Shown piece after piece: positions 7,577 through 50,595 of a stretch of DNA of 56,287 bases (within the stretch, counting starts at the first letter, position 1; every line of letters starts with the position of its first letter). The notes under the pieces were generated by a model, which was not told the origin of the DNA, searched no databases, and saw only the letters and a program-made list of their open reading frames with translations. Both the position numbers and the translations under genes were made by a program. The stretch comes from an uncultured Deinococcales bacterium (GTDB lineage: Bacteria; Deinococcota; Deinococci; Deinococcales; JAAFIG01): the NCBI GenBank assembly GCA_964244895.1, contig CAXTKV010000005.1, forward strand, positions 1 to 56,287. Reading direction: 5' to 3'.

Positions 7577-7652
7577 ACGCGAACAGCCCGTCAGCGATCC
7601 CGCCCGTCAGGTGCGTTTTGGGATCAAGAAGGTGCTGTCTTGTGAGCAAGAA
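7577..7652 (-). repeat. 39-bp micro-insertion, type 1, copy C (contains nested copy D)
   Basis: Minus strand TTCTTGCTCACAAGACAGCACC[37 bp]TGACGGGCTGTTCGCGT; removal of 76 bp restores LPWSNGPVEG and the frame. Confidence 0.9.
7594..7630 (-). repeat. 37-bp micro-insertion, type 2, copy D, nested in copy C
   Basis: Minus strand TTCTTGATCCCAAAACGCACCTGACGGGCGGGATCGC. Confidence 0.9.
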
Positions 7653-7955
7653 CGGGCCAGTGGAGGGCGTAGTGAATAAGATCAAGTTGGTGAAGCGCAT
7701 GATGTACGGGCGGGCTTCAGTGCCTCTGTTGCGGAAAATGGTTGTGCTGGACGGGTAATTCTCTCGAACCATCAAAAGTGACGAACAGCCCGTTCCATAT
7801 CCTCGTTTTGGGAGTTTGCTCTATCCCAAGGCTTCTTCGTGGGCATTCCGTCCTCGAGCAACCGTCGGTGCAAAAAGATCGACCCGTGAGGTACAGAATT
7901 TCACGGCTCTCGGCGTGGGAGGGGCTAACATTTGTGTTCGCCACCTTCTGCGGGC

Positions 7956-8936
7956 CTACCCTTCATGTTGGCCCATGAAGGATTTTCGCGCCTTCGATGC
8001 CCCGAGGGCCTCGAGCGTTTCCGAAAATCCTTCCGCAAAAGAAGTGTGAGGAATGGTTCCCACCTCGAGTTCATATTTTGTGCCGTCCAGAACCAGAGGG
8101 TTCTCCGTTAGATACATCATTTCTGACATTTCCTTGAAGGCGGGAACGACCAGCCCGAGCACCTGAACTGACACCCGCCCCAATCCGAGGACTGGGCTTC
8201 GGCGACCCAAATATCCCTGGCAGATGTTGAGGATTTCATGGCCGCTGATCAATTGCCCTGGAATGTTCCAGGTCTGACTGAAGGATTCGTCGCGCAAAGC
8301 GATGTTGACAATCATCTTGGCGGCATCAGGCAAATAGACGTACTCTCGAGGCACGCGAAGGCTTCCAACGAAAATCGTCGGTTGACCCCGGACGAGACCC
8401 TGCAAGGTCGGGTCGAGAAAGGCCATCTGGCTGGTCGGCCCGTAGTAATCGGGAAGCCGGACAATGACGGCTCGGGCTTTCTTCCAACGGATCGAGAGCA
8501 CCTCGCGTGCAAAAGCCAGTTTCGCTCGACCTTTTCGGGTGTGAGGGATCATGGGGTACGTTTCTGTCACCGGGTGTCCTGGGGTTCGCCCGTACACGTA
8601 GACGCCGTCAACGAAGACGACCTTTTTCGAGGTCTGTTCGGCTGCTGCCATGACCGAAGCGGCGAGGACGGGAAGCGTCTCGACCATGCCGACGTAGCCG
8701 CCGTTGGCGCATTGGAAGACGACGTCAGCCTGTTCAAAGGCGGAGACCAAGGTGCCCGTTTTGTAAACATCGCCTTCGGCGCACTCGAGAAGCGGTGGCG
8801 ATCCCCAACGGACTCGCAACTTCTCCAGTTTTTGGCGATTTCGTCCGAACACGGTGGTGGGAATTCCTCGAGCCAACAACTCGAGCGCGATGGCCTGACC
8901 GCTTCCACCGGTGGCACCTAAAACCAATGCTTTCAC
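7956..8936 (-). CDS. NAD(P)-dependent epimerase/dehydratase (atypical SDR)
   Basis: MKALVLGATGGSG Rossmann motif, VYVYG, RLPDYYGP, EYVYLPDAA; RBS AAGGAG. Confidence 0.88.
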   Translation of the reverse strand: MKALVLGATGGSGQAIALELLARGIPTTVFGRNRQKLEKLRVRWGSPPLLECAEGDVYKTGTLVSAFEQADVVFQCANGGYVGMVETLPVLAASVMAAAEQTSKKVVFVDGVYVYGRTPGHPVTETYPMIPHTRKGRAKLAFAREVLSIRWKKARAVIVRLPDYYGPTSQMAFLDPTLQGLVRGQPTIFVGSLRVPREYVYLPDAAKMIVNIALRDESFSQTWNIPGQLISGHEILNICQGYLGRRSPVLGLGRVSVQVLGLVVPAFKEMSEMMYLTENPLVLDGTKYELEVGTIPHTSFAEGFSETLEALGASKARKSFMGQHEG

Positions 8937-9025
8937 GGTTGTCTCCTTGGGTCACACGTTTCGGTGGGGATGCTGCTATTGGGCAGTGTTCCGTTTAAAG
9001 CCATTCACTTTCAGAGTAAGAAACC

Positions 9026-9038
9026 CTTTCGCTGATAG
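9026..9038. promoter_or_regulatory. Putative TetR operator
   Basis: Imperfect palindrome CTTTC-GCT-GATAG upstream of the epimerase, similar to CTATC-TTT-GATAA at 9681-9693. Confidence 0.45.
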
Positions 9039-9053
9039 ATTTAAGATAAAAAA

Positions 9054-9659
9054 TTAAGCCCTAAGATTGGTTTGCCAACTCCAAAGTAAATCTTGGACGG
9101 TTTCCAAAGCGAGCTCTGCGGCTCGGTCAAATCCGATATTGGGCAACATGGCCATACTGGCCATGCCGTGCAAAACCCCAGAAATAACCTCAATAGTTTT
9201 TTGGACATCCACGAAGACGATTTCTTTGTCCTCAGCCCAACGTTGCAGAACCTCCATCGTCAGTTGGCACATGCCAGACGCTGCATTCGCCCGGATTTGA
9301 GGGTCAATGGTCACCCCACCCATTCCGTGCATCAGTTCGTAAACTCGAGGTTGCGCCCGAACAAAAGCAAGGTATGCCCGAGTGAGTGCCAGCATAATTT
9401 CGTCGGCATCTCGAGTCTTGAGTGAGATCGACATGGTCGCCTCCAATGCTCGATAGCCCTCGATCACCACGGCGACAAGCGCATCCTCTTTGCTGCCGAA
9501 GTATTGATAAATGATGGGGGAAGTGTACTCAATTTGATCTGCGATGCGCCGAATCGTCACAGCGGACCAACCTTCACTCGCCGCAATTTGACGGGCGGCA
9601 TCGAGAATGCTGGCTCGAGTGACTCGTTTTTGGCGCTCACGGCGTTCCTGCGTTCCCAT
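9054..9659 (-). CDS. TetR/AcrR-family transcriptional regulator
   Basis: ILDAARQIAASEGWSAVTIRRIADQIEYTSPIIYQYFGSKE. Confidence 0.93.
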   Translation of the reverse strand: MGTQERRERQKRVTRASILDAARQIAASEGWSAVTIRRIADQIEYTSPIIYQYFGSKEDALVAVVIEGYRALEATMSISLKTRDADEIMLALTRAYLAFVRAQPRVYELMHGMGGVTIDPQIRANAASGMCQLTMEVLQRWAEDKEIVFVDVQKTIEVISGVLHGMASMAMLPNIGFDRAAELALETVQDLLWSWQTNLRA

Positions 9660-9680
9660 TTCTGTCGCCTCATAAAAAAT

Positions 9681-9721
9681 CTATCTTTGATAAATTTAAC
9701 GGTTTCGCTGAGTTTTGTCAA
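9681..9721 (-). promoter_or_regulatory. Sigma70-type promoter for tetR with adjacent operator
   Basis: TTGACA-17-TAAATT on the minus strand, abutting palindrome CTATCTTTGATAA. Confidence 0.65.
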
Positions 9722-9819
9722 GTCCCTGAAATGACGAGGCGGCTGAGAGCGAGACAAGTAGGGCTTCCCGTCGCTGAGAAAGCCCTACGATGAGTATAGC
9801 AAAACGTATCACCCGCATC

Positions 9820-10431
9820 GTCACTGCCCGCTCGCGTCTTTCTCGGCGCTCGCTGCTGCCGACGGTTAACCATTCGCGCACGACACGGTGTTCTCCGGGT
9901 TTCGAGCCGAGACTGAGCGTGTGAGCCAGGCGCAAAACCCGCTGGTGCTGACGCTGAGGACTCGAGCCATGATGCCGACCTCAATGGGTGAGCAAGGTCA
10001 CAGGTGAACGCTACGATCGGGGGCTTTTTGAGATAACGAATTTCGTGGCTCATTTCAGAGTTACACGCGCTTGCAACCCTGCCCGTCAGATGCGTTTTAG
10101 AGTCACGAAGACGAAGAACATCTCACTCGAGCTCCAAACAACGGTTTTCTCGCTCGAGCATTTGATGCGTGGTCAGACCGGTCACGGTTGAAACGGGTGA
10201 ATACGGGTCCGAGCGTTGAGGGTGCTGTCCTTGGTCAGGGTGCTGAGTCCCACGCCAAGTTCCTGATCGATCACGCGCCTGGGTTTGCCGCTGGTGAGAT
10301 CGGGTTGTCCGGCTCGGGCTTCGAACTCGGGTGGCTCCTGATGCGTGCGTTTTTTGGTTGGCATGTTCGCTCCTGATGCTGATCAGGAGTGACTCGAAGT
10401 GCTTCATATCCATGCAATTGGAGCGATGGCA
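9820..10431 (-). mobile_element. Degraded IS3-family remnant (orfA and start of orfB)
   Basis: MPTKKRT..PEF..SGKPRR..ELGVGLSTL (HTH_Tnp_1-like), LERENRCLELE*DVLR, IMARVLSVSTSGFCAW; stops and frameshifts; boundaries approximate. Confidence 0.75.
10073..10109 (-). repeat. 37-bp micro-insertion, type 2, copy G
   Basis: Minus strand TTCGTGACTCTAAAACGCATCTGACGGGCAGGGTTGC; removal gives DVLRQA at the end of IS3 orfA. Confidence 0.8.
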
Positions 10432-10435
10432 CTTT

Positions 10436-12337
10436 TCATTTGACCTGAGTCGTCGGATTAGTCGCCCTCGAGACTGGAAACTCGGCCACACGAATCCGGG
10501 CACAGCCGTACGGGACGAGTGGGATCGGGTGCTGGTGCTGCATCGGACCGGTCAGGTTCTGCGGGGGGGGTGCAGCAGAGTTTTGCTCGATGCCCCAGCC
10601 GGTCAGCAATCCGGCTGGGACGTGGACCCGGAGCGGCACGGCTTCTACACCGATTGGTGCCGCCCCCATCCGGTGCGAGAACGGTGGCGAGGGGACGTTC
10701 AGGCGTTCCACCCGGCACTCGTGCGCCCGCGCCGGATCGAGCGTCAGGCCGTAACTCCACGAGCGGCGGAAGCGAACCTCGAAGTCGCCGAAGCCCGCCG
10801 AGCCAGGGATGCGCTCCCAGACCTCGCCCGGTGCGAACGCCAGCGTCAGCGGCCCGAGGCTCAGCGCAACCGCGCCGCGCGGTCGCTCGAGTGCGCGCAC
10901 GCGCATCGGCAACCGGAGTTCGATCCAGTCGCCCTCGCACCACTCGCGCTCGAGGCGCAGGAACCCCCCAGGTGATCTCTCGACCTCGAGCGCATCTCCG
11001 TTGAGGTGAACTTCGGGCGCCTCGCACCAGGCCGGGGCGCGCAGCAGCACCTCGAAGCGCGCTGGACGATCCGGCGCGACCTCGATCCGGACGTTCTCCT
11101 TGAAGGGGTAGTCGGTGATCGTCTCGAGCTTCACGACGACGCCACCCGCGACGGTGGCGTTGGCGCGGTTGGGCGCGTAGGCGATGGCGGCCAGTCCGCC
11201 CGAGGGCGTACCCATCCACAGGGCACGCACGAACTTCGGCCAGCCCTGATGCAGGTTCGCGGTGCAGCAACCGAAGTGCGGTTCGAGCCCAAAGGTGTTG
11301 GCGTCGGCGGTGCTCATCGTCCAGTCGCGGTCGGCGATCGTACAGAGCACTTGGTTGATCTGCTGGTGGTACTGGTGGGCGCGCATGTCGGCGCTCATCG
11401 CGGCGGGTAGGGCGTTGAACGCGACCCGTTCGAGTCGATCCCCGAACTCGGCTTGACCGAAGGTGCGGATGAGCTGCTCCAAGCTGAACATCATCTCGAC
11501 GACCGCGCAGGTCTCGACGCCCCGCTCGGGGCCGAGCCCGGCCAGCCACTCGTCGCCGCTGAACATCCCGTTGACCATGCCGTGGAGGGTCTCCAGGTTC
11601 TCGAGGCTGCGACGGATGTTTTCAAGGTGCCGAGCCTCGCCATCGCGCGCGAAGCGCACGGCGGGCAGCTTCAGGGCCATCGCTACGTTGACGACGTGCG
11701 TGAAATGCGAGAACGAGCGCACAGGTCCGCGCGCGAGCTGCTCGGTCAGGTAGGTTTCCCAGTCGAGCGTTTGCGAGAGGATCAAGTCGATGAGCTCCAG
11801 CAGGCGCGGTTCGCTCGTGCGCTCGAACAGCCACAGCGCAGGCAAGAGGTTCTCCGCGCCTCGGGCCGCACCCCAACCCTCGAGCGGGCGGTCGGGGAGG
11901 TGTTCGAGTTGGTGGTCGAAGTATCGGCGCATGAACGGGATCACTCGCTCATCGCCCGTCGCGTCGTGGTGCTGAGCCAGCACCTTCAGCGCGACCATGC
12001 GCGGCCACCAGTCGTCGTTGCTGGCGGGGCCGAAAAAGCCGTCTTCCCGCTGGCTCCCAATCATCGCCTCGATCCAGCGCTGCGCCTTCGTCAGGAGCTG
12101 TGGGTCATTGAGCACATGTGCCAGCGGCAGCAGGCCGTCGAGGTAGTACGGGCCGCGCTCCCACGCCTCACCGTCGCCTCCCAACCACGCGCTCGAGGCG
12201 CCGACGTCCGCCCAGAGTTCCTCGAGATGCCCGGTCAGGCCATCGGCTTGGAGGCGCAACTGCTCGAGCAACCAGCCCGCAGGCTCGACCGCACCCAGCG
12301 GCAACTCGAGGAAGGCGGGTTGTGCGAGAGGCGTCAC
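10436..12337 (-). CDS. GH127/GH146-type beta-L-arabinofuranosidase-like glycoside hydrolase
   Basis: WERGPYYLDG, HVVN, GVETCAVVE, LERVAFNALPA, FGCCTANLHQGWPK, TDYPF, LVPYGCARIRV. Confidence 0.88.
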   Translation of the reverse strand: MTPLAQPAFLELPLGAVEPAGWLLEQLRLQADGLTGHLEELWADVGASSAWLGGDGEAWERGPYYLDGLLPLAHVLNDPQLLTKAQRWIEAMIGSQREDGFFGPASNDDWWPRMVALKVLAQHHDATGDERVIPFMRRYFDHQLEHLPDRPLEGWGAARGAENLLPALWLFERTSEPRLLELIDLILSQTLDWETYLTEQLARGPVRSFSHFTHVVNVAMALKLPAVRFARDGEARHLENIRRSLENLETLHGMVNGMFSGDEWLAGLGPERGVETCAVVEMMFSLEQLIRTFGQAEFGDRLERVAFNALPAAMSADMRAHQYHQQINQVLCTIADRDWTMSTADANTFGLEPHFGCCTANLHQGWPKFVRALWMGTPSGGLAAIAYAPNRANATVAGGVVVKLETITDYPFKENVRIEVAPDRPARFEVLLRAPAWCEAPEVHLNGDALEVERSPGGFLRLEREWCEGDWIELRLPMRVRALERPRGAVALSLGPLTLAFAPGEVWERIPGSAGFGDFEVRFRRSWSYGLTLDPARAHECRVERLNVPSPPFSHRMGAAPIGVEAVPLRVHVPAGLLTGWGIEQNSAAPPPQNLTGPMQHQHPIPLVPYGCARIRVAEFPVSRATNPTTQVK

Positions 12338-12613
12338 GCGCCCTCCCGCCGGCGCAGCCAGACCTGGATCGGTTCGACGCTATAAGGGCGACCAAATCGC
12401 TCGCTCGTCCGGGATCTCGCGAACGGTAGCGGCAATGATTTTTCGATGTCAGCGCAGGGTGGCGGCGCGAAGCGCGCGTTTTTAAAGCGCACCGCCGTCG
12501 CGGGCTCTCGGCGCAGGTGCAGCCCCGCAGGCTTCTTGGGACAAGGCGTCCCGCGGTTTCTCGAATTCCCCTGGGTTGGTTGAATCGTCATGGATTTCCT
12601 CAATTCCTCGTAC

Positions 12614-13477
12614 CTAACCCTTGACCGCACCCGCGATCAAACCGTTGATGTAATAACGCTGCAACAGCAAGAACAGCACCGCGCAGGGCAGCATGCTGAT
12701 CATCAGTCCCGCCTGCATCGCGCCCCAGTTGACCGTGCCAAACTGGCCGGCCTGGGCGTTCAGGAGCATCACCGGCAGCGTGAAATCCTCGGCGTTCGAC
12801 ATGAAGATCAGCGCCGCCAGGAACTCGTTCCAGGCTCCGAAGAAGGCGAACAAGGCCACCGTGACGATGCCGGGCAGCACGACGGGCAGCATCACCTTGG
12901 TGAGCAACGTCACTGGCGTACAGCCGTCGATCAGTGCGGCCTCCTCGAGTTCGCGCGGCACGCTGTCAAAAGAGTTTCGCATCATGAAGACCGCGAACGG
13001 CAACTGGAAGGTGGTGTAGACGAGCGCCAGACCGAGCAAAGTGTTTTGCAGGTGAATGAAGCGCAACAGCAAAAAAAGCGGAGTCAGGATCGACTGGAAC
13101 GGGATCATCAGCGTCACCAGGATCACGACGAAGACCAAGTTCTTGGCCGGAAAATGAAACCTCGAGAAACCGTAGCCGCCGAGCGTCGAGAGGATCACCG
13201 CGCCCACCACGGTCATCAGCGTCACGGACACGCTGTTGAACAGGTAGCGCCCGATGCCATCCCCATAGCTCGCCAGGTTCGCGTAGTTCTCGAAGCTGAG
13301 TCTCGAAGGCAGGAACGTCGGCGGCGAGGCCGAAGCCTCGGACGGCGGCTTGAACGAGGTCAGCACCGACCAGAACAGCGGAAACGCGAACGCCACGAAC
13401 AGCGCGATGCAGACCGCGTAGTAGAGCACCGGAGGGCGCTGGCGTCTTGATGGGGCGCTCGGACGGCGTTCGGTCAT
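12614..13477 (-). CDS. Carbohydrate ABC transporter permease (MalG-like)
   Basis: EAA motif ELEEAALIDG, TM helices, GAVKG terminus. Confidence 0.92.
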   Translation of the reverse strand: MTERRPSAPSRRQRPPVLYYAVCIALFVAFAFPLFWSVLTSFKPPSEASASPPTFLPSRLSFENYANLASYGDGIGRYLFNSVSVTLMTVVGAVILSTLGGYGFSRFHFPAKNLVFVVILVTLMIPFQSILTPLFLLLRFIHLQNTLLGLALVYTTFQLPFAVFMMRNSFDSVPRELEEAALIDGCTPVTLLTKVMLPVVLPGIVTVALFAFFGAWNEFLAALIFMSNAEDFTLPVMLLNAQAGQFGTVNWGAMQAGLMISMLPCAVLFLLLQRYYINGLIAGAVKG

Positions 13478-13604
13478 GGTGACTCCTCGTTCGCGTGCGA
13501 GCCATCTGAGAACCGACTTCGCGCCCCGCGGCACCGTCCGGCGCGGCAAAGACTGTTGGCGTCCGCGACTGTGCTTCCGGTAATTCCGAGTTCAATCTTC
13601 GAGT

Positions 13605-14561
13605 TCACGATGGGGCTTCATCCCGCAGCAGATAGAGCTGGGCGACGCTGATGGCGATCAGGATGACGAGCAGCACGACCGACATGGCGGCGGCGTAGCC
13701 GAGCCTGAAATACGTGAAGGCCGCGCGGTAAATCCAGTACACGACCGTGACCGTCGAATTTTCCGGGCCACCGTGGGTCAGGATGTAGAACTGGTCGAAG
13801 GCCAAATACGAACCGATCACCGAGATGGTCAGCGCCAGGGCGAAGGTGCGCCGCAAGAGCGGCACGGTGATGAACCGCATTCCCTGCCACCAGCTCGCAC
13901 CGTCGATTTTGGCGGCCTCGTAGAGGTCCTCGGGGATGGCCTGCATCCCGACCAGCAGGAGCACCATCGTGAAGCCCGCCGTCTTCCAGACCACCATCAC
14001 CGCCAGCGTGGCGAGGGCGCTGCCCGACTCAGCCAGCCACTGCACGGGCTCCTTGACGATCCCGAGACCGATCAAAATCGCGCTGAAAACGCCCACCTGA
14101 TCGTGCAACAACCAGACCCACAACAGACTCGCTGTGCCCAGTCCGATCACCACGGGCAGAAAGTAGGCGGTGCGGAACGTCCCGACCCAGCGCAGCGGGC
14201 GCTGCACCAAGAGCGCCAGGCCGAACGCGGTCAAAAAGATGATCGGCGTCACGACCAGCGTATACCTCGCGGTGAACAGCAAACTCGACCAGAACGTCGC
14301 GTCGGTTAACAGGTTCCGGTAGTTCTCGAGCCCCGTAAAGTACGGTTTTTTCAATAAGCCCCAGTTGTGCAGCGACATCCAAACCGTCATCCCGAGCGGC
14401 ACGAGAAAGAACACGGACGTAAAGAGCACGCACGGCAGGACGAACAACAACCCGGCCCGCTGGTGTCGGACTCGGGTCTGGCTGGGGCGGGCGACGGTGG
14501 GCTTCGTGGCAGCGATGCGCATACTGGATGCAGACCCCTCTCGAACCTCGAGGGGGCGCAC
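13605..14561 (-). CDS. Carbohydrate ABC transporter permease (MalF-like)
   Basis: GLENY, LYEAAKIDGA, TM helices; start uncertain. Confidence 0.92.
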   Translation of the reverse strand: MRPLEVREGSASSMRIAATKPTVARPSQTRVRHQRAGLLFVLPCVLFTSVFFLVPLGMTVWMSLHNWGLLKKPYFTGLENYRNLLTDATFWSSLLFTARYTLVVTPIIFLTAFGLALLVQRPLRWVGTFRTAYFLPVVIGLGTASLLWVWLLHDQVGVFSAILIGLGIVKEPVQWLAESGSALATLAVMVVWKTAGFTMVLLLVGMQAIPEDLYEAAKIDGASWWQGMRFITVPLLRRTFALALTISVIGSYLAFDQFYILTHGGPENSTVTVVYWIYRAAFTYFRLGYAAAMSVVLLVILIAISVAQLYLLRDEAPS

Positions 14562-14584
14562 GCCCGTGCGCCCCCTGTGCGCGA

Positions 14585-15841
14585 CTACTTGATGTTTAAG
14601 ATTTTGGTAAACGCATCCTGTGCCTTCTGAACGGCGGTGTCCACGCCGCTACCGAAGATCGCCTCCTGGAACATGGCGAGCCACGGACCGTTAGCATCGT
14701 TGAAGAGTTCGTTGTAGTGCACCGTGTACGGCGTGCGCCCATCCGCCATCGCCTTAGACACAGTCACGAAGCGCGGGTCGAGCTTGCTGTACTCGTTCTC
14801 GGACAGGTCTGAGCGGACGGGAATGCTGCCGTTCTTGGCGAACTCCTTGACCTGTACGTCCTCGGTCAGGCACCAGTTGATGAAGTCGAAAGCCTCCTTG
14901 ACGCGTTTGGAGCCCGCCGGAATCCCGATCGAATCGCCGCCCGCGAAGCTCGAGGAGCCGCCCTTCTCGCCCGGCAAAGGCGCGATGCCGAAGTCCACCT
15001 CCGGGTGGTCGCGCTTCAAGATACCGATCGAGAACGCACCCGTTCCCGCCATGCCGATCTTGCCCGTCAGGAAGGCACCCAAGAAGTTGGTGCCGTTGTC
15101 GGTCTTGGCTCCTGCAGGAACCTGCCCACCCTCCCACAGCCGCCGGTACAGAGCGAGCGCCCCTTTGACGGCGGGGTTATTCAACGTCGCCGTTTTGCCG
15201 TCGGCGGAGAGCACGTCGCCGCCCGAGGCCCAGATCAAGGGCAGGAACGTGAAGGCGTTGCAGCCAGCGCAGGCTCCCGCGAAGTAGTACCCCTTGATCC
15301 CGTTGCCGAGCGCCGTGATTTTCTTCGAGTCAGCCTCGATCTCGGCCCAGGTCTTGGGCGGCTTGTTCGGGTCGAGCCCGGCCTGCTTGAAGAGGGCCTT
15401 GTTGTAGACGAGTACCGAACCCTCGGCGCTGAACGGCACGGCGTAGGTTTTGTTTTGGAAGGTCGCCAGACGCACGTGAGAGTCCGAGAGGGTCTTGGCA
15501 AAGGGCAGGGCTTTGATTTGGGCGGTGATGTCGGTCATCTGCCCGGCTTCGGCGAAGGCGGGCAGGTAGATCAAGTCGATCGCCACGACGTCCGGACCGG
15601 CCCCACCGGCGACCGCCGTGCCGAACTTGGTCACGAACTGATCGTCTGGGATGCTGGTGAGTTTGACCTGGGTGGGGTGAGTTGCGTTGTAGGCCTTGAC
15701 GAGCGGCGCGGTGAAACCGCTGTCCGCAGCGCGAACCCAGAACGAAACGGTGTTGTCCTGGGCGAGCGACGAGGCGGCAAACGCACCACCGGCGGCGGTG
15801 AGGGCGGCGAAAGCGAGGAACAAACGCGTGTTTGAGGGCAT
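14585..15841 (-). CDS. Carbohydrate ABC transporter substrate-binding protein
   Basis: Signal peptide MPSNTRLFLAFAAL.., GPDVV, LVYNKALFKQAGLD..PPKTW. Confidence 0.92.
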   Translation of the reverse strand: MPSNTRLFLAFAALTAAGGAFAASSLAQDNTVSFWVRAADSGFTAPLVKAYNATHPTQVKLTSIPDDQFVTKFGTAVAGGAGPDVVAIDLIYLPAFAEAGQMTDITAQIKALPFAKTLSDSHVRLATFQNKTYAVPFSAEGSVLVYNKALFKQAGLDPNKPPKTWAEIEADSKKITALGNGIKGYYFAGACAGCNAFTFLPLIWASGGDVLSADGKTATLNNPAVKGALALYRRLWEGGQVPAGAKTDNGTNFLGAFLTGKIGMAGTGAFSIGILKRDHPEVDFGIAPLPGEKGGSSSFAGGDSIGIPAGSKRVKEAFDFINWCLTEDVQVKEFAKNGSIPVRSDLSENEYSKLDPRFVTVSKAMADGRTPYTVHYNELFNDANGPWLAMFQEAIFGSGVDTAVQKAQDAFTKILNIK

Positions 15842-15925
15842 AAAACTCCATCCGCCGCGACAGCTCAGCGCGGCTGATTCTCCAGAAGGCAACACTTCGG
15901 ACTTGACGGGCTGAAACGGAGTTCG

Positions 15926-17014: not shown

Positions 17015-17078
17015 GGTTGGCTCACGGGGGAATCCAAAAAGGCTGTTTCCCAAGTCAAAACCTGGGATATTTCGTAAA

Positions 17079-17135
17079 GAAACATTGTTTCCTTTGTGTA
17101 ATTTGCAGCTTAAGCGCTCAACAACGAGAAGTCAA
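17079..17135 (-). promoter_or_regulatory. Promoter and LacI-type operator for the LacI-ABC-GH127 operon
   Basis: TTGACT-17-TAAGCT (17135-17107) and palindrome GAAACATTGTTTC (17079-17091). Confidence 0.65.
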
Positions 17136-20711: not shown

Positions 20712-21350
20712 TTACTGATCTTTCTCGAAGGTCGCGTACAACCGCTCGAACTTGACCCGCGCCGCCTCCGTGCTGAACCACCAATCCACTGAAACCTTAC
20801 GAGCGTTCCGCTCCGAGGTCCATGCGTCTGCCACCACCCGCAAGCCCTCAAAACGACCAATCCGCCGCCCCAGACACTGCCGCTCAAACACCGACCACTC
20901 GAGTTCCGCCATGTTCAACCAGCTTCCGTGCTTGGGCGTGAAATGAAACTCGAGCTTCTTGGTTAACGCTCGAGCCTCCACTGGCGGCAACGACTGGTAC
21001 AAGGCCGCAGGCGAGTGCGTCGAGAGGTTATCCAACACCACACGAATCACTTCCGCTTTCGGGTAGTCCGCCACCAACCGCTGCATCTGCGTTGCAAAAT
21101 CCTGAGCGGTGCGCCGTTCGGTCACACTGATCGTGCGTTGCCCCGTGTGCGCCTCAAACGCGATGAACAGGTTCACCGTGCCACAACGCTTGTACTCGTA
21201 ATCCTCACGCCTGGATTGCCCTGATTCGGCTGGTAAGGCGTCCTGCACGTCCTGGAGGAGTTGGTAGGGTTTCTCGTCGAAGTTCACCACCGGACGCTTG
21301 GGGTCGTAAGCTTCAGCGTACAAGTCCAGAACGTCCTCCATGCGCCACAC
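20712..21350 (-). CDS. IS630 transposase OrfB (DDE)
   Basis: FDEKPYQL, DYEYKRCGT, VLDNLSTH, TPKHGSWLNMAELE. Confidence 0.92.
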   Translation of the reverse strand: MWRMEDVLDLYAEAYDPKRPVVNFDEKPYQLLQDVQDALPAESGQSRREDYEYKRCGTVNLFIAFEAHTGQRTISVTERRTAQDFATQMQRLVADYPKAEVIRVVLDNLSTHSPAALYQSLPPVEARALTKKLEFHFTPKHGSWLNMAELEWSVFERQCLGRRIGRFEGLRVVADAWTSERNARKVSVDWWFSTEAARVKFERLYATFEKDQ

Positions 21351-21361
21351 GAAGTCAGGCG

Positions 21362-21835
21362 TTACCTGGCTGATGCACCAGGCGCGTTTCTGCCACGGTT
21401 TGAGATCGTTTTTTTGAGGGTGCGCCGCACGGTTTCGTCGCTGATCGAATCCACCACCTCGAGTTCGACCAGGCGATCAGAAAGCAGTTGCATTGTCCAG
21501 CTTTCGCGCTCGTCGGGCGGGGCGCCGCAGGCGAGCGCGATCAGCACGGCTTCTTGTTTGGCATCAAGTTTGGGTGTCGCGCCGGGTCGGGGTTTCTCGC
21601 TGAGGGCCGCTTCGAGTCCTTGCTGATTGAAGCGCTTGCGAGTGGCTTTGATGGTGGCAGGGCTGACTTGGAGGGCGTGGGCGACCTCCTTGTCCTCGCG
21701 GTCCTCGCTGGCGAGTAGCAGGATGCGGGCGCGGGTCATGACGCGCGCTTTGGCATGGCCTTTCTTGGTCAGGTTTTTGAGGTGCTGGCGCTGCTGGTTG
21801 TTGAGTTTGACGGGGTAAAGCTTAGGTCGTCCCAT
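21362..21835 (-). CDS. IS630 transposase OrfA (HTH), joined to OrfB by a probable -1 frameshift at A7 (21409-21415)
   Basis: RARILLLA, PRPGA.PKL, WTMQLL, ISDETVRRTLKK. Confidence 0.88.
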   Translation of the reverse strand: MGRPKLYPVKLNNQQRQHLKNLTKKGHAKARVMTRARILLLASEDREDKEVAHALQVSPATIKATRKRFNQQGLEAALSEKPRPGATPKLDAKQEAVLIALACGAPPDERESWTMQLLSDRLVELEVVDSISDETVRRTLKKTISNRGRNAPGASAR

Positions 21836-23252: not shown

Positions 23253-23265
23253 GTCTTGTCCTCCG

Positions 23266-24941: not shown

Positions 24942-24942
24942 A

Positions 24943-27670: not shown

Positions 27671-27724
27671 TCAGAAAAGTAGGCTTTTTGGGGTTCTCGA
27701 GGGCTGGACGATTGGCGTTCGATT

Positions 27725-28501
27725 TCAACTCAACACGTTCCCACCGTCAACGTTCAAGGTCTGACCGACGATGTATTCGGCCTCGCTCGAGGCGAGGAAC
27801 ACGACCGCCGAGGCAATCTCGTCCGGCGTGCCCATCCGCCCGTAGGGCACGGTCAGACCAACCTCGCGCCGCTTTGCACCCGGCTCGAGTCCAAACTGCT
27901 GGGCGTAGAGCGTGTCTACGCGATCCCACATCGCCGTTTCGACCACACCGGGTGAGACGGCGTTGACTCGGACGCGGTATCTGATCAAAGCGAGGGCCGC
28001 CGAGCGGGTCAAGCTGATCACCGCCGCCTTGGTCGCGGCGTACACGGACGAGAACGGCTCGCCGATCTGACCAGCCTGCGAAGCCATGTTGACGATGCAA
28101 CCACCCTGCCCGTCTTGAACCATCAGCCGCGCCACGGCCTGTTGCACGAAGAACACACCCTCGACGTTGATTCGAAACAAGTGCTCGAAGCTTTCCGGTG
28201 TGACCTCGAGCAGCGGAGCCATGTCGAAGATTGCGGCATTGTTGACGAGGATATCGATGCGTCCGGCGCGCAGGGCCGCCTGTTGGACGACAGACCCGAT
28301 GGTTTCAATCGCACCTGCATCCAGCCTGGTGGCGAACGAACCGTTGCCGATCTCGGCGGCGGCCCCATTTGCTCCAGCGTCGTCGATGTCGGCCACGACA
28401 ACGCGCGCTCCACGCTCCGCGAGGGCCTGTGCGACTGACCGCCCGATGCCATTTGCCGCGCCCGTCACGAGCGCAGTCTTGCCCTCGAGTGAATGAATCA
28501 T
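27725..28501 (-). CDS. SDR, sorbitol (L-iditol) dehydrogenase-like
   Basis: TGAANGIG, NNAAIFDMAP, NMASQAG, YAATK, GQTLNVDGGN. Confidence 0.88.
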   Translation of the reverse strand: MIHSLEGKTALVTGAANGIGRSVAQALAERGARVVVADIDDAGANGAAAEIGNGSFATRLDAGAIETIGSVVQQAALRAGRIDILVNNAAIFDMAPLLEVTPESFEHLFRINVEGVFFVQQAVARLMVQDGQGGCIVNMASQAGQIGEPFSSVYAATKAAVISLTRSAALALIRYRVRVNAVSPGVVETAMWDRVDTLYAQQFGLEPGAKRREVGLTVPYGRMGTPDEIASAVVFLASSEAEYIVGQTLNVDGGNVLS

Positions 28502-28508
28502 GATTTCC

Positions 28509-29999
28509 TCAACGGACTGCCGCCGCCACGGCCGCAAAGGAACCGTCCCGCTCGAGGTGTTTACGCATGGCCAGAAACGCGGTCCTGAAGGCTTCGCTCG
28601 AGTCCAAACCCAGCGCTTCAAACGGCGAGAGCTTGAGCACGGCCAGCGGATCATCTGAGGCCAGCAGGGTGCGATCCCGTGCTGTCAGGAGCGGTTCATC
28701 GACGGTAAACGTGCCGCCGCTGAGGTCATGACCATGTAAGTAATGCTCGAATGCAGCGAGGTTGAGCGCCACGCGCTCAAAGCGACCATCGCGTTCCAGG
28801 AGTTCAGCGAGTGTTTTGGACAGAAAGATCGGCAGCTTGGCGATACCGTTCTGCGCGATACGCATGAGTTGATCGCCGACGGCAGGGTTACTGAAGCGCT
28901 CGAGCACCTGGCGCTTGTACTCCTGGAGGGAAACGCCTTGCGGACCCTCGATCAGCGGGATCACGTCCCGATCCATGAAGGCTTCAAGGTAGGCGCGTAC
29001 GGCGGGCTGCCGCATGGCTTCGTCCACGAGACGGTATCCGCACATCAGCGCGGGGTAGCAGAGCATCATGTGCGAGGCGTTCAAGAGGCGACCCTTGATC
29101 GCCTCAAACCTATCCACATCGTCGCGCAACAGAACACCCACCCGTTCGAGGGCTGGTCGTCCGGTAATGAAGCGATCCTCGAGCACCCATTGCGCGAACG
29201 ATTCGCCAATCACCGGGAGTTTATCCTCGAGTCCGCTGAGGGTGTTGACTTTGAGTTTTTCCGCTGCGCCCACCGATGGGGCGATGCGATCCACCATGCT
29301 GTTCGGGAAGGAGACGTGTTCTTCGATCCAGTCCGCAAGGTCAGTATCTCGGGACGTGGCAAACGCGAGCACCACCTTCTTTGAGACATCCCCATTGCTG
29401 CGAAGGTTGTCACACGAGAGAACCGTGAACCCCGGCAGACCCGCCGCGCGGCGTCGCACGAGCGCTTCAACGATGTAACCGAACGCGGTCTTCGGTTGGT
29501 GGTGATGAGAAAGGTCGTGTTGTACGGTTGGATTTGAGAGCATGAATTCACCGCTGGTCTCAGCGAGGTTGTAGCCACCTTCGGTGATCGTCAGGGAAAC
29601 GATGCGCGTTTCAGGCGCAGCGAGGCGCGTCAGTACCGCCTCAGTCTGGGTTGGAGCGTGAAGGTAGCCGATCAACGCTCCAATCAAACGCACCTCGAAA
29701 CCACCATCGGGCGCATACTCGGTCAGGGTATAAAGCCCGTCCTGAGCGCGGAACATGTGGGACTTCTCGAGCTTTTCAGGGCCGTCGCCCAAGCCCACGC
29801 CAACGATGCCCCAGGAGTGCTGGCCGGGCAGGTGCAGGCAGCGTTCCACGTACATGGCTTCGTGGGCGCGGAAGAAGTTGCCGACGCCGATGTGAACAAT
29901 TCCGGGGGTGATTTGGTCGCGGTTGTACGTAAAGCTTGCGACAGGCTGCGGGCTCGCTGCGGTGCTCGAGCCCAGCGGCAATGCGGTTCGGCGTGTCAT
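28509..29999 (-). CDS. Mannitol dehydrogenase family (mannitol/arabitol 2-dehydrogenase)
   Basis: GIVHIGVGNFFRAH, SLTITEGGY, LSCDNL, FPNSMVDRI, RLLNASH, RFSNP. Confidence 0.93.
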   Translation of the reverse strand: MTRRTALPLGSSTAASPQPVASFTYNRDQITPGIVHIGVGNFFRAHEAMYVERCLHLPGQHSWGIVGVGLGDGPEKLEKSHMFRAQDGLYTLTEYAPDGGFEVRLIGALIGYLHAPTQTEAVLTRLAAPETRIVSLTITEGGYNLAETSGEFMLSNPTVQHDLSHHHQPKTAFGYIVEALVRRRAAGLPGFTVLSCDNLRSNGDVSKKVVLAFATSRDTDLADWIEEHVSFPNSMVDRIAPSVGAAEKLKVNTLSGLEDKLPVIGESFAQWVLEDRFITGRPALERVGVLLRDDVDRFEAIKGRLLNASHMMLCYPALMCGYRLVDEAMRQPAVRAYLEAFMDRDVIPLIEGPQGVSLQEYKRQVLERFSNPAVGDQLMRIAQNGIAKLPIFLSKTLAELLERDGRFERVALNLAAFEHYLHGHDLSGGTFTVDEPLLTARDRTLLASDDPLAVLKLSPFEALGLDSSEAFRTAFLAMRKHLERDGSFAAVAAAVR

Positions 30000-30035
30000 G
30001 AACGGGGCCTCCTGATGCGGGTCGTGTTTGAAGCA

Positions 30036-30075
30036 TTAGTTAATATCTATACTAAAGAAAATAACCAAATGTCAA
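30036..30075 (-). promoter_or_regulatory. ROK (XylR/NagC-like) operator and promoter of the polyol operon
   Basis: AT-rich palindrome TTAGT-N10-ACTAA (30036-30055); TTGACA at 30075-30070. Confidence 0.55.
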
Positions 30076-30715
30076 GCACCGACCGACGGAACTTGCGCGA
30101 TGGGGCCGTGCCCAAAGATGCCAGCCCGCTCGAGGCACCCGTTTACCGCCTCATGATCGTCGCTTTCATTGGATCATCTTCACAACCCTGCGCCCGGCGG
30201 CAACACGATGAATCCACTCAGCTGCGGCGGCGGTTCCTGATCTACTGGGCACCGCCCCCAGCGGCCTGGGCGCTTGACACTGGCGGGCTTGGGATTCGCG
30301 TTTGATGCCATCCGCACGCCCGAGCAGGTAGGGGCCGTTAAGCCCCGCCTGACCAGTCTGCCCTGCGTGAGGCATGACCCGGAAGCGCTTGAGAGGTTGG
30401 TTCCCATCGGAGACATGCTCTCGCAGAGGACATGGCGGCAAACCGCGCTCGGGCTCACTCCGTCCGGGTGTGGCGTGAGCGGTTACACTGGTTGAAAACC
30501 AAACCGAGCCGAAACGCCGTGCATACCAAACGCACGGTCAGCTCGACGACGCAAGAAAGGATAAAATCGAACGTTGTCTGGCCTTCGATGAGACCCTAGC
30601 AACCCACCTTCCCAGGCCAGACGAGATCGTCGCAGACTGGTTGACGGGATCCCGAGCTGGCCCAGCGATCCAGAGGGCACGAGCCATCGATGCTCCTGCC
30701 GATAAAACCCGTTTC

Positions 30716-31921
30716 TCAGAGGGCCAATTCCTGCGCTGTAAACTCGAAATTTGAGATGTCAAAGGCATGATGGTGCGCAATTGTTGCTGCACCCACGGCA
30801 CACTCGAAAATTCCGAGTTGGGAAAGTCGAACCTCCGGCACTGAGATACCCGAGATGATTCCGTCGGCAACGCGCTCGCGGATGGCCTCCAGGCTGTACT
30901 CGAGCACTGGGCGCATCATCCCGCCCAGCATCACCGTGGTCGGATTGAAGATGTTGACGAGGCTGACGATTCCAAGGCTCAGGTAATGCGAGATCCTCTT
31001 CATCGCTTCTTGGGCGCCCACATCGCCCGCCTTTGCGGCTTCAACGACAGCCGTTGGCAGCATCGCCAATTCCTCGGCGGCAAGGTCCTCTGTTCCCCTG
31101 TACGACCGCGCCAGCGCACCGAGGTTGACCCAACTTTCCAGGCAACCCGTTTGGCCGCAACTGCACCGATGGCCGTGCTCGGTCATCCGCAGATGACCCA
31201 TCTCACCAGCCGTCCCTCGAGCCCCGCGCAACAACCGACCATTGATGATCGCAGCACCACCGCAACCCGTTCCGAGTTTCAGAAAAATCGCGTGGTTGCC
31301 TGGAAGTTCCGGCTGGGTGTACACCGCTCCGAAGGCTGCAGCGTTGCCATTGTTCTCGACGAAGCTGGGCAAGTCCACAGCTTTCGAAAGCAACGCCAAC
31401 AAATTGACCTCCTTCCAACCGAGGATCGGGAGGTGAACGACAAAGCCTTCAGACGTGACTAAACCAGGTACGGTCACACCGACGCTGCGAACCCTGCCGT
31501 AAAATCGGGCATCCTGGCGCAGTGACTCGAGGTGATCGGCAATGATCTTGACCGCAGCAGACGGCGTGATCTTCTGCGAGACCCGCTTCTCGAGCGAAAA
31601 GACGACGCTGGCAGAAAGGTCAATCAATGCCAGTCGAATAATGCCAACACCGATTTCGACCCCGAGAAAAAACGCTCCATCCGGGTTGAGCGCGACCCGC
31701 ACACCCGGACGACCCGGTTCACGGTTCACCTTATCCTCGAGCGTCTCTTGGACTTCTTGCACCAACGCTTGACGCTCAAGGTTGGCTACAAGGCGTGTGA
31801 TGGTCGCGGGTGTCAATGACAGACGACGGGCGATGTCCGCGCGACTCGCTGACCCATGCGTTCGCAGCAGGGTGAGGAGGCGGAGTTCATTGAGGTACTT
31901 TACGAGGGTCTGATCGGCCAT
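30716..31921 (-). CDS. ROK-family transcriptional repressor
   Basis: SRADIARRLSLTPATITRLV, PGRPG, VENNGNAAA, GEMGH, CSCGQTGCLE. Confidence 0.92.
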   Translation of the reverse strand: MADQTLVKYLNELRLLTLLRTHGSASRADIARRLSLTPATITRLVANLERQALVQEVQETLEDKVNREPGRPGVRVALNPDGAFFLGVEIGVGIIRLALIDLSASVVFSLEKRVSQKITPSAAVKIIADHLESLRQDARFYGRVRSVGVTVPGLVTSEGFVVHLPILGWKEVNLLALLSKAVDLPSFVENNGNAAAFGAVYTQPELPGNHAIFLKLGTGCGGAAIINGRLLRGARGTAGEMGHLRMTEHGHRCSCGQTGCLESWVNLGALARSYRGTEDLAAEELAMLPTAVVEAAKAGDVGAQEAMKRISHYLSLGIVSLVNIFNPTTVMLGGMMRPVLEYSLEAIRERVADGIISGISVPEVRLSQLGIFECAVGAATIAHHHAFDISNFEFTAQELAL

Positions 31922-32131
31922 TGTTAAAAAGAATACTTCGTTTTGAAAGGGGCACGGCAGGGATGGGGTTTGGGGATCCGCCGCTCGAATCCTGGTCTCG
32001 GCGTTCGTCCGAGCGGGCCTATTCGCGTCGTCGGGAGCATCTTCCCCCGACGACTTCGTTTTGCCGGGCGGAGCAGCGGATGGAACCAGCTGTAAGGATC
32101 CTTTCATATCCCATTTGACACATTATTGATT

Positions 32132-33931
32132 ATGAACTGGTATTCCCGAGCATCCTCGCCGATCCTCAGCCTGCTCCTCTCTCTCGGGCTTCTGAGCTGC
32201 AACGGCATCAACGCGCCGTCACCCTCCGAGCAGACCCCAGCCGCACAAAACTACATCCTGACCCTCAAGATCAGCTCCGCAGACAGCGCACAAGGACTCG
32301 AGCAGCGCTACAGCGCCAAGATGCTCGCCTACCAGCCCCAGGCGGGTTTCGCCATACTGCTGAGCCCCAACCAACCACCCAAGACTGACCCGGCAATCAC
32401 GACGGTCGAACCCGACGGAACCATCAGCGCCCCCGTCACGGATTCCTTCAGGGAACACGGCCCAATCACCCGTCAGGGAAGCACCAGCAACATGGGCGGC
32501 TGGACCTCCTGGAGCGGCGGCTGGACTTCCTGGAGCGGCGGCTGGACCTCCTGGAGCGGCGGCTGGACCTCCTGGAGCGGCGGGGTCAGCAGCCTCGCGC
32601 CGGAACTCCCGGCGCAAAATCAGGCCGCCTGGAATCAGATCAAACTCTACGAGGCTCACCGGATCTCGAGGAACTTCGGAGCAGGCGTCAAGATCGCCGT
32701 GATCGACACCGGCATCGATCTGAACCACCCGATTTTCCAGGGGCACCTCGCGCCCTCGAGCCAGTGGAAAGACTACGTGGACAACGACGCCACCCCGCAA
32801 GAGGACAGCGGTGGCAACGCCAACGGCAAGGCTTACGGTCACGGCACGGCGGTCGCGGGCATCATCCTCCAGATCGCACCCAGGGCCACGATCCTGCCGA
32901 TCCGGGTGCTCAAAAAGAACGGCGACGGCAACACCTCCGACATCGTTTCCGCGATCAACTACGCCGTCACGCAGGGCGCGCAGGTCATCAATCTCTCGCT
33001 CGGCACGGACGGGTACGACGCATCCTTGTTCACCATCAGCAAGTTTGCGAACGCGGCGGGCGTCCGCATCGTCGCATCGGCGGGCAACAACGGCACCAAA
33101 GATGGCGTGACCTCGCCCGGACAGTTCTCGTGGCTGGCGGGTACGGCGAGCTGGACGATGGGAATCGGCAGCACCAACAACACCGATGTGCTCTCGAGCT
33201 TTTCCGCCTACGGCAGCGGCCTCTACGGCGTCGCACCGGGCGAGGCGATCTACAGTTCCTACCCGAGCAACCAGGCCGTTAGCGCGACCGGCACGTCCTT
33301 CGCCGCACCGATGTACTCCGGCGCGATCGCGCTGGCTTACGCGGACATGCCCAACGTCGCCGACCGCAGCCGGATCCAGGATTTCATCTCGAGCAGCCTC
33401 GATCAGACGGTCGCCCAACCGGGCTCGACGACCCTCAAATACGGGCGGCTCAACCTGGAACGCACGATCCGCAGTCTGCCGGGCTGGACGGAACCGACCA
33501 CGGTCCAATCGGGTGTCTACAATCTGGTCAACGTCAACTCCAACAAGTGCGTGGACGTTCCGGGTGCTTCCACAAGCACTGCTGAACAGGTTCAGCAGTG
33601 GACGTGTGGCACGGGTGACAATCAGAAGTGGAAGATTGAACCCGTCGGCCCGTACTTCAAGCTGACCGCCGTCCATAGCGGCAAGGTGCTCGAGTGGTAC
33701 GACCCGAACGCGGGCGATGGTGGTTTGGCCGACCAGTGGGATTTCACGAGCGGGTGGATGGAGCAGCAGTGGAGCATCGCCAAGACCGCCAACGGCTTCA
33801 AACTCGTGAACGCCTCGAACGGCAAGTGTTTGGACGTTCCGGGCTTCTCCAACACTGATGGGGTAAAACTTCAGCAGTTTACCTGCAACAGCGGCGACAA
33901 CCAGAACTTCAAACTGCAGGCGCTCTTCTGA
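32132..33931 (+). CDS. S8 subtilisin-like serine protease lipoprotein with C-terminal ricin-B lectin domain
   Basis: Lipobox LLSC; triad VIDTG / HGTAVAG / GTSFAAP; QxW repeats (SNKCVDV..NQKW, SNGKCLDV..NQNF). Confidence 0.93.
   Translation: MNWYSRASSPILSLLLSLGLLSCNGINAPSPSEQTPAAQNYILTLKISSADSAQGLEQRYSAKMLAYQPQAGFAILLSPNQPPKTDPAITTVEPDGTISAPVTDSFREHGPITRQGSTSNMGGWTSWSGGWTSWSGGWTSWSGGWTSWSGGVSSLAPELPAQNQAAWNQIKLYEAHRISRNFGAGVKIAVIDTGIDLNHPIFQGHLAPSSQWKDYVDNDATPQEDSGGNANGKAYGHGTAVAGIILQIAPRATILPIRVLKKNGDGNTSDIVSAINYAVTQGAQVINLSLGTDGYDASLFTISKFANAAGVRIVASAGNNGTKDGVTSPGQFSWLAGTASWTMGIGSTNNTDVLSSFSAYGSGLYGVAPGEAIYSSYPSNQAVSATGTSFAAPMYSGAIALAYADMPNVADRSRIQDFISSSLDQTVAQPGSTTLKYGRLNLERTIRSLPGWTEPTTVQSGVYNLVNVNSNKCVDVPGASTSTAEQVQQWTCGTGDNQKWKIEPVGPYFKLTAVHSGKVLEWYDPNAGDGGLADQWDFTSGWMEQQWSIAKTANGFKLVNASNGKCLDVPGFSNTDGVKLQQFTCNSGDNQNFKLQALF
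32495..32578 (+). repeat. 21-bp coding tandem repeat x4 (GGWTSWS)
   Basis: GGCGGCTGGACYTCCTGGAGC x4. Confidence 0.97.
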
Positions 33932-34105
33932 CCTGTCCAAGATGGAGTTCTACCCTGAGTAGGGGTCGTATTCGAGCGCGATCCCGATCGTTACGCCGCG
34001 ATCAGGGCGTCGCAAGGCATCGGTGTTCCGCCATTCGAAGCGCGAAGCTGCGGCCCTCGATCGGGCGAATCAGGGCCGGTTCTTGGCCAGCCGAGTGGGC
34101 GCGCT

Positions 34106-34432
34106 GTGGTCGACCTGACGGCACCCGAGCATCCCTACCACGCGTCTCTCGTGCTGGACGGTAAAACCTCGAGCGTAAAGCTGCGAGCGCTCGACGAACA
34201 TGGCGAGATCGAACCCGACATTCCGGACGATCCGGCGTTCGACTTTTGCCAAGGCAACCCGGTCTCCGAAGGCGCTGTTCTCGAGGCCAAGCGCAGCGCG
34301 CTCGAGACCGAAGCGCGGCACGCGGCTCGCACCTCGGACGAGAGGCAGCTGGAGCGGATCACACCCCAGACGCCGTTCGGCCCGCAGTTGAGGGATCACC
34401 TCGACGGGCAGCCCGTCTTCAACGGCGAATGA
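34106..34432 (+). CDS. Hypothetical protein or gene fragment
   Basis: 108-aa ORF with coding-like composition, no recognisable motif. Confidence 0.3.
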   Translation: MVDLTAPEHPYHASLVLDGKTSSVKLRALDEHGEIEPDIPDDPAFDFCQGNPVSEGAVLEAKRSALETEARHAARTSDERQLERITPQTPFGPQLRDHLDGQPVFNGE

Positions 34433-34893
34433 CTCGAGATGTTTGAGGGCTCGGAGGTCGTGCGCGACGAGACGCACGAGAAAGTCGCGTACTTGCACGC
34501 CGGGGAGGATCGCGTGCCTCGTCTCGAGTGCAGGATGCGGTTGAGGTGGCCGTCGGGCTCCTACGCAACATCTCGAGCGAAGAGGTGATTACTAGATTTT
34601 GTAGACATGCGGTTCATCCTCGAGAATCGAGGCGAACACGGCCAACAAGAACAAGACCGACCAACCCGAGTTCAAACGCGAGGCCGTGCGCCTTGCCTGA
34701 ACCCCCGAGAACACCGTGGCAGGCGTCACCCGCGACCTTGGGTTGCGCCCGAACCTGTTGCACTGCTGGATTCGCCGAGCTGAAGGCCGAGAGGCCAGCG
34801 GATGCCCGAGCTTCACCAGGCGCGTCGTTCCCGCGCTGAGTGAGCAGAGGCAAGAGGTTCAACGCCTCAAACGAGAACTCGAGATTGCCCGTC

Positions 34894-34931
34894 TTTTTGA
34901 TCCTGGGCACGCACTTGACGGGCAGGGTCGC
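34894..34931 (+). repeat. 38-bp micro-insertion, type 2, copy E
   Basis: TTTTTGATCCTGGGCACGCACTTGACGGGCAGGGTCGC; removal restores EIARQERDIL. Confidence 0.85.
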
Positions 34932-34962
34932 AGGAGCGGGACATCCTCAAAAAGCGGTAGCC

Positions 34963-35000
34963 CGTCTTAACCCGAAAACCCACCTCACGGGCAGGGTCGC
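34963..35000 (+). repeat. 38-bp micro-insertion, type 2, copy F
   Basis: CGTCTTAACCCGAAAACCCACCTCACGGGCAGGGTCGC; removal restores KAVAFFAK. Confidence 0.85.
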
Positions 35001-50593: not shown

Positions 50594-50595
50594 CC

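Follow-up and report, generated by a model that had tools for sequence, protein, structure and literature searches.

The small dispersed repeats (SDRs) of Nostoc, reportedly described by Elhai et al. (2008, Genome Res 18:1484), are said to nest within themselves, to have compensated stems and to be moved by an unknown agent, and SDR1-8 are reportedly 21-27 nt in length. On our best reading, by description only, they are the closest kind to a family of hairpin units found in the 56,287-nt window analysed here, which is the whole of contig CAXTKV010000005.1 (contig C5) in a 5.12-Mb assembly (91% complete) of an uncultured Deinococcales bacterium. By these criteria the units resemble SDRs: they self-nest, enter other repeats and have compensated stems. 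They differ in being longer (36-41 nt across families, against a reported 21-27 nt), in belonging to Deinococcota rather than Nostocaceae, in their two-stem fold, and in carrying signals that point to DNA rather than RNA. The units are also dispersed, shorter than 50 nt, protein-less and precisely inserted into an abundant palindrome, just as SDR5 inserts precisely into the abundant palindrome HIP1 in the relevant sections of PMC5861425 and PMC4390886; the former, in the section cited, reports SDRs solely in Nostocaceae. The passages of these two papers that cite the Nostoc report give no mechanism, and the movement of elements far below the size of miniature inverted-repeat transposable elements (MITEs) has been an open question since that report.

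The family fails the defining tests of the other candidate systems, namely the REP/REPIN sequences with their RAYT transposases, the palindrome-associated transposable elements (PATEs) of IS200/IS605, integron attC sites and classical MITEs. Like REP/REPIN sequences, as set out in the cited portions of PMC8266576, PMC3333891, PMC6006769 and PMC3116915, the units are short imperfect hairpins amplified in tandem. However, they end in TTCTTG and CGC without the GTAG/GTGG foot, are singlets rather than doublets, and do not flank RAYT genes; GTAG repeats surround the RAYT of this genome and also serve as targets for the units. Junctions are mixed, often C|T on the TTCTTG strand but G|T at the target most used in this genome. 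With PATEs, to the extent described in the cited part of PMC7290912, the units share non-autonomy, a hairpin with an unpaired base, and the lack of terminal inverted repeats and target duplication, but each is one hairpin rather than two ends, is far shorter, and uses a loose, two-sided target with no fixed 4-5-nt site. A search for orphan half-units or a longer parent element found none. Units have neither the terminal inverted repeats nor the target-site duplication of classical DDE MITEs. Literature searches, whose coverage excluded subscription papers and supplements, found no description of this hairpin family; the SRE/SNR repeats of D. radiodurans may overlap it. What is added here is evidence on strand, a wider range and a set of enzyme exclusions.

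Seven copies, A to G, lie in the window with the following targets.

5915..6586, plus strand: IS5-family transposase remnant (Pfam DDE_Tnp_1), target of copy A
5991..6029, plus strand: copy A, type 1, 39 nt, inside the IS5-family remnant, where it introduces an in-frame stop
6600..7800, plus strand: ISL3-family remnant (Pfam DDE_Tnp_ISL3; tblastn homologues), target of copies B, C and D
6717..6755, plus strand: copy B, type 1, 39 nt, in frame within the ISL3 transposase remnant
7577..7652, minus strand: copy C, whole span, type 1, antisense in the ISL3 gene, interrupted by copy D
7577..7593, minus strand: 3' half of copy C (peeling census and comparison with the empty-site homologue)
7594..7630, minus strand: copy D, type 2, 37 nt, nested at the loop junction GCACC|T of copy C
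7631..7652, minus strand: 5' half of copy C, through GCACC (peeling census; 76-nt gap against the C303 homologue)
10073..10109, minus strand: copy G, 37 nt, decayed type 2; an IS3-like remnant lies ∼90 nt away
34614..35725, plus strand: IS3-family remnant (Pfam HTH_Tnp_1, at 34665-34880, and HTH_21), target of copies E and F
34894..34931, plus strand: copy E, type 2, 38 nt, within IS3 orfA
34963..35000, plus strand: copy F, 38 nt, decayed type 2 of the longer-tail variant, where IS3 orfA ends
55049..55092 (end approximate), no strand assigned: sole window copy of the 44-55-nt palindrome that units hit most often elsewhere in the genome, empty (palindrome census)

The pieces are true insertions, and empty-site homologues show them to be precise. 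Relative to the window, homologous DNA on contig C299 lacks 39 nt at the site of copy B, that on C303 has a 76-nt gap at the site of copies C and D, and an IS3 homologue on C15 has two 38-nt gaps at the sites of E and F, with no target duplication in any of them. For copy A, an aquatic metagenome contig carrying the same IS5 element (7 differences in ∼570 nt) omits exactly those 39 nt, the shorter side of this joint being 25 nt. Excising B, C plus D, E and F in silico restores the transposase reading frames at the insertion points, and four tRNA genes of relatives in the same family (f1), all interrupted at C32|U33, regain canonical form when the unit is removed in the same way. Six of the seven insertions fall within the IS5, ISL3 and IS3 remnants, and the seventh, G, adjoins an IS3-like remnant, positions 9884-9982 matching IS3-like DNA on contig C285. 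Off-target integration by Cas1-Cas2 was considered and rejected; the genome has cas1, yet the insertions lack target duplication.

The copies of a preliminary description of the window, a common core GC-A-CC-TNNC-GG-GC and the outer-arm pairs quoted in that description for the type-2 copies D, E, G and F are all present in the sequence. With a covariance model trained on 30 type-2 units (including D and G), six of the seven copies were recovered at E<0.01 (C is split by D) and nothing further in the window; the score of D, itself in the training set, was 63.6 bits. Copy E appears to derive from two stem types, as a chimera or by decay. Where IS3 orfA ends, window position 34963 and G000:C276:2781 (G000 being this genome) carry different unit types: the C276 element has a type-1 unit ∼3 nt beyond the position of copy F. 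Units so close together in two diverged IS3 elements suggest a structural hot spot.

Read on the TTCTTG strand, a unit consists of the tail TTCTT, a 6-bp outer stem, a purine-rich bulge of 3-6 nt, an inner hairpin (GC/GC, a bulged A, CC/GG and a loop) and a final GC; its fixed ends are TTCTTG...CGC. Support for this fold is covariation, not folding energy, as single copies fold no better than shuffles (z from -1.4 to +0.7). In a set of 216 copies (169 distinct) collected by their anchors only, without a pairing criterion, the four variable outer-stem positions were 93% Watson-Crick, compared with 55 ± 2% when the arms were shuffled. Among 30 distinct 37-nt units, five of the six outer-stem pairs vary on both sides, and the C-G to T-A swaps first noted in the window thus hold family-wide; both-side changes filled 51 cells, against 18.9 ± 4.7 in shuffles (equalled in 0 of 500), although the shuffle controls for stem pairing ignore relatedness among units. 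Slid registers of these units pair at 33-47%, against 98% in the true register, and RNAalifold recovers the same fold from them. There are 15 fully paired stem types in f1 and further new ones in a second family, f3, and because the stems are so many and include these new ones, their variety argues for repeated compensation. The compensatory changes support the earlier proposal of selection on a folded single strand. The inner core hardly varies in f1 and is therefore uninformative by covariation.

The structure first given for type 1 fared less well. Its stem extension, ACAGC/GCTGT, is off register: positions 32-33 covary with 10-11 (mutual information 0.74 and 0.78) and not with 15-16 (0.10 and 0.03), and A17-T31 is the sole pair of the extension that holds. 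The type-1 outer stem is GC-TC-AC with GT-TC-GC, in which the states AC/GT, AT/AT and GT/AC covary. A pairing between bulge and tail, as a guide, was tried and rejected, variants breaking it on either strand. One type-2 loop, at G000:C8:29071-29110, has apparently received a small hairpin of another kind, whose loop region contains CCGAAG.

The preliminary description assigned selection to the TTCTTG strand on the grounds that the wobbles pair only there. This is true of copies E and G, but the 169 distinct units give ratios of G-T to A-C of 4:4 (non-type-1) and 3:4 (type 1), and the active strand is probably the opposite one, GC...CAAGAA. All 206 tetraloops start with T and 202 of them end with C, which reads C-GNNA-G on the opposite strand, while only 72 of the 206 are of the GNRA type (purine at position 3); the 10 triloops are all TTC, or C-GAA-G on the opposite strand. 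Tandem G-A pairs are stable, and type 1 retains T-C/C-T at positions 8-9 (62/64 and 64/64), equivalent to a tandem G-A pair on that strand. In a long-hairpin subtype of f3, 19 of 22 distinct units share a C-A at one position of the stem, which varies to T-A and C-G and whose neighbours covary; this C-A is a G-T wobble on the opposite strand. The extra-helical base on the GC...CAAGAA strand is a T. In the cited part of PMC13037366, GNA and GNNA loops form extra-stable DNA mini-hairpins that are much weaker as RNA, and mini-hairpin DNA withstands nucleases. Hits on tRNA genes, in sense (anticodon loop, four cases) and in antisense (D and variable loops), and on transposase genes in both orientations point to a DNA target. 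Overall, we regard a single-stranded DNA intermediate as likely.

The size of the family was estimated by a genome census using a weight matrix and peeling of nested units, with the reversed genome as control. It made 161 calls in the real genome and 0 in the reversed one, and after 15 weak calls were dropped, 146 copies in 89 blocks remained. About 67 of the 89 blocks sit at a single fixed position, ACACCG|T, of the 44-55-nt palindrome, which has ∼1,690 empty copies genome-wide and is present in this genome only among the 19 family genomes (0 of 18 relatives). The window is nearly devoid of the palindrome (1 copy), consistent with an island. The repeat stem of a CRISPR array beside cas1 (G000:C36:30.8-32.2 kb) closely resembles the arm of this palindrome. 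The hexamer CTCGAG is over-represented in the genome, at 21,883 occurrences or ∼4 per kb, and is HIP1-like.

Beyond this genome, every one of the 18 other family genomes matched the anchor pattern (1-189 copies), against 1 of 22 from other families, and controls gave 0 matches; a scan of 301 genomes was positive in 9/9 of f1, 4/112 of f3 and 0/179 of f2, f4 and f5. Well over a thousand pattern matches lie within f1. A pattern limited to the outer scaffold occurred in 55 of 111 genomes of genus g7, which we infer to be Deinococcus, at up to 134 copies and again with 0 control matches. The named database records that bear the pattern are from Deinococcales or Deinococcota; the 40 of 112 pattern stretches outside Deinococcota and all 9 viral matches were attributed to chance, since at most three of five stem positions are paired in them. 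A loose regular expression was dropped as noise (1736 real against 1978 control matches).

Away from the palindrome, 115 independent sites gave the target consensus C-S-C|T-T-C, which loosely repeats the junction formed when the two ends of a unit meet. A C before or a T after the cut was present at 109 of these sites (∼44% expected), and the match of target to junction averaged 4.8/12, against 3.0/12 in controls. CT was the commonest junction dinucleotide (53/115), while GT was found in 23 of 27 palindrome sites. The sites comprise loops of GTAG repeats (21), tRNA loops, MITE-like repeats, transposase genes and the unit's own loop, in which units nest at GCACC|T. Adjacent type-1 pairs were identical in 7 of 14 cases, compared with 1% of non-adjacent pairs, indicating local copying. 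At L059, L061 (G003:C5) and L068, three genes of a tRNA array and another tRNA-Ile(TAT) are interrupted at C32|U33, and D-loop and variable-loop insertions were seen in g7 tRNA genes (L312, L320). MITE-like repeats bounded by TAAGTA...TACTTA carry several units in both f1 and genome G221 (L004, L005, L049, L052, L062, L065, L077, L104; L239, L241, L244, L247).

In this genome, 12 of 22 non-palindrome insertions fell inside transposase loci totalling ∼33 kb, so that insertion density was 0.36 per kb in those loci and 0.013 per kb in other non-coding DNA, a ∼30-fold difference obtained with crude gene calling and a query set partly derived from hit loci. The bias holds at p = 5 × 10^-4 even with IS DNA underestimated five-fold. 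No palindrome lay within 5 kb of 14 of the 22, a class spanning 12% of the genome. Survival accounts for part of the bias towards transposase genes, because the two host-gene copies checked, in GlnRS (L249:4511-6508, genome G014; named from a reading of the sequence) and in XdhC (G000:C131 around 10059), are 39 nt long and in frame, i.e. insertions of 13 codons.

The family is very probably a non-autonomous mobile micro-element without a protein of its own. The model we prefer, at a probability of roughly 45%, is that a folded strand of single-stranded DNA is cut and pasted in trans by an HUH-type transposase. Such an enzyme is favoured because its chemistry acts on hairpins with an unpaired base, leaves no duplication and amplifies locally; the first two traits are described in the cited parts of PMC7290912 and PMC8266576, and single-strand circles and local amplification are proposed for RAYTs in that of PMC3333891. 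The GC...CAAGAA strand would fold once exposed as a single strand, and the enzyme would recognise the inner hairpin together with the unvarying tail and the 3' end, the outer stem being needed only as a helix. Cutting would take place at both ends, which would be joined to give a small dumbbell circle whose 7-nt loop holds the junction, and the circle would then enter single-stranded DNA, often in a loop, that has a partial match to the junction. Every insertion would make better targets and could be copied locally, giving nests and tandems, and copies would persist mainly in dispensable DNA or in frame within genes. The HUH idea, already raised in the preliminary description, is still the leading candidate, although none of the HUH classes tested is shared by every high-copy genome.

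A number of observations weigh against this model. No circle or free single strand was seen, and a metagenome joint that 'goes back 39' could equally be a tandem. The target match spans both sides of the cut, unlike the one-sided rule of IS200/IS605. As for the strand, the invariant T5 and G36 can wobble-pair on the TTCTTG strand, a pairing-biased recount of wobbles gave 16:8 in favour of that strand (p = 0.15), and one f3 subtype has GTAT/ATAT loops, which are not GNNA on the opposite strand. The hairpin TCTTG-CTCA-CAAGA, formerly proposed for type 1, is fully Watson-Crick in only 10 of 70 distinct units, but the tail can pair with positions 11-15 on the TTCTTG strand, in at least four pairs, if G-T is used (63/70). 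The only Y1 gene of the genome is a RAYT with GTAG repeats of its own: a Pfam search for Y1_Tnp gave 0 matches, tblastn then found one intact subclass-2.4 RAYT (G000:C12:40628-41182, L194) with GTAG repeats inside and upstream, and a Y1 profile built in this study found nothing else. A RAYT query found none in G221, G104, G110 and G017, nor in G269, G053, G068, G151 and G174 in a run without a positive control, so that RAYTs were not found in several high-copy genomes. Of 15 g7 genomes with at least 10 copies, only 7 have a Y1_Tnp match, and four lack both Y1 and IS110. On the side of the model, Y1_Tnp is present in 30 of 55 g7 genomes with copies and 14 of 56 without (Fisher p = 0.002, uncorrected for kinship), but this link may reflect copies riding inside IS200/IS605 elements. 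No recurrent gene family was found beside the copies among 1014 nearby open reading frames (ORFs).

No moving enzyme was found among the classes searched, a result that rests on incomplete assemblies and on profiles that overlooked one real RAYT. Of the 18 relatives, 16 have subclass-2.4 RAYTs, but so do 6 of 22 genomes from other families, and of 10 further carriers tested, 9 gave no match to the RAYT query. The remaining RAYT-like genes of relatives occur sporadically and come with GTAG repeats of their own; of 12 RAYT loci, one carries a unit, located inside a GTAG repeat. At 15 tnpA loci no matching hairpin was found apart from one inserted copy. Y2_Tnp gave 0 matches in this genome, though the positive control did not respond either.

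Movement by a host tyrosine recombinase, which would treat the folded strand as an attC-like 'empty cassette', use a micro-homologous target and leave the junction to be resolved by replication, appears unlikely. The layout is indeed attC-like, by the cited part of PMC5027507: a single-strand hairpin defined by its structure, with a paired box, an unpaired spacer, an extra-helical base, an often-GAA loop (on the presumed active strand) and micro-homology to the target, which matches the junction on both sides. Tyrosine recombinases are found in 19 of 19 family genomes, and their use would explain the lack of a linked transposase. However, the units have no RYYYAAC...GTTRRRY (AAC) core, gene cassette or IntI, and the crossover is outside the stem and not in the paired box. 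No integron integrase exceeded the TIGR02249 cut-off in any of the 19 genomes, and no copies adjoin the 12 recombinase loci examined.

Single-strand annealing and break repair are strong in Deinococcota, and capture of nuclease-resistant mini-hairpin fragments by micro-homology during such repair, with no dedicated enzyme, would fit the loose target, the short end homology (reaching 9 nt where GlnRS of G014 is interrupted), the absence of a mobile enzyme common to all carriers and the nuclease resistance of mini-hairpins (in the cited part of PMC13037366). We consider this quite improbable: the ends are base-exact, with the tail, core and 3' end invariant across two families, 56 of 111 g7 genomes have no match despite the same repair machinery, and repair offers no source of the free fragment.

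An RNA route, in which RNA loops receive a small structured RNA (a micro-intron or retro-element) by ligation or reverse splicing and a reverse transcriptase returns the product to DNA, is very unlikely, and the RNA or template reading of the preliminary description is disfavoured with it. In its favour, the four anticodon-loop insertions are all in sense and at C32|U33, and all but one of the 19 family genomes have RtcB; yet RtcB is also common outside the family, among the controls, and the interrupted tRNAs of G003 sit in a tRNA array. Insertions in tRNA D and variable loops and in transposase genes include antisense ones, so targeting is not sense-only as for group II introns or retrons, and the loops are GNNA and GAA, neither GNRA nor UNCG. 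RVT_1 occurs in 5 of the 19 family genomes (5 of 18 relatives, and not found in this one), a count made on incomplete assemblies. A comparison with Rfam gave nothing at gathering score, three matches at E 1.7-6.5 being due to chance, and no group II or retron motif. In G012 (C80:47009-49219), the RtcB ORF of 947 aa is split into three matched parts and possibly contains an intein.

IS110 members have a CT core and target REP sequences, and parasitism of an IS110-family recombinase could account for the CT junctions and the lack of duplication, but it is highly improbable, as no IS110 was found in this genome, its presence shows no link with carriage in g7 (6/15 high-copy against 20/56 zero-copy genomes), the targets are too varied for a fixed guide, and a 38-bp double-stranded circle is physically implausible.

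Several other features of the window were recorded. Three tandem paralogues with SnoaL domains lie at 49424-52783, the second apparently frameshifted (ORF 50574-51392, no Pfam match in frame). Two histidinol-dehydrogenase-like paralogues in opposite orientation, at 40314-41684 and 53629-54924, share ∼76% DNA identity. An IS630 element at 20712-21835 has no unit insertion, and a 21-bp tandem repeat at 32474-32599 lies within a 573-aa ORF with no Pfam match.

The variation in copy number across g7 (0 to 134), spread over many high-quality genomes, together with the number of matches, the clear signature of structure as against sequence and the predicted strand, makes the mover findable through comparative genomics and pull-down, and an enzyme that places a 37-nt hairpin scarlessly at a loose site would be of interest both for its mechanism and as a tool. 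The strong bias towards transposase genes is relevant to the silencing of mobile DNA in these genomes. It is conceivable, if rather doubtful, that the units are minimal single-stranded DNA transposons moved by a vertically inherited host enzyme (one other than RAYT, IS200 TnpA, IS110, IntI or reverse transcriptase) and preferentially jam incoming mobile DNA. If so, they would represent a new cut-and-join chemistry for a cargo of 36-41 nt, and possibly a domesticated anti-transposon mechanism.

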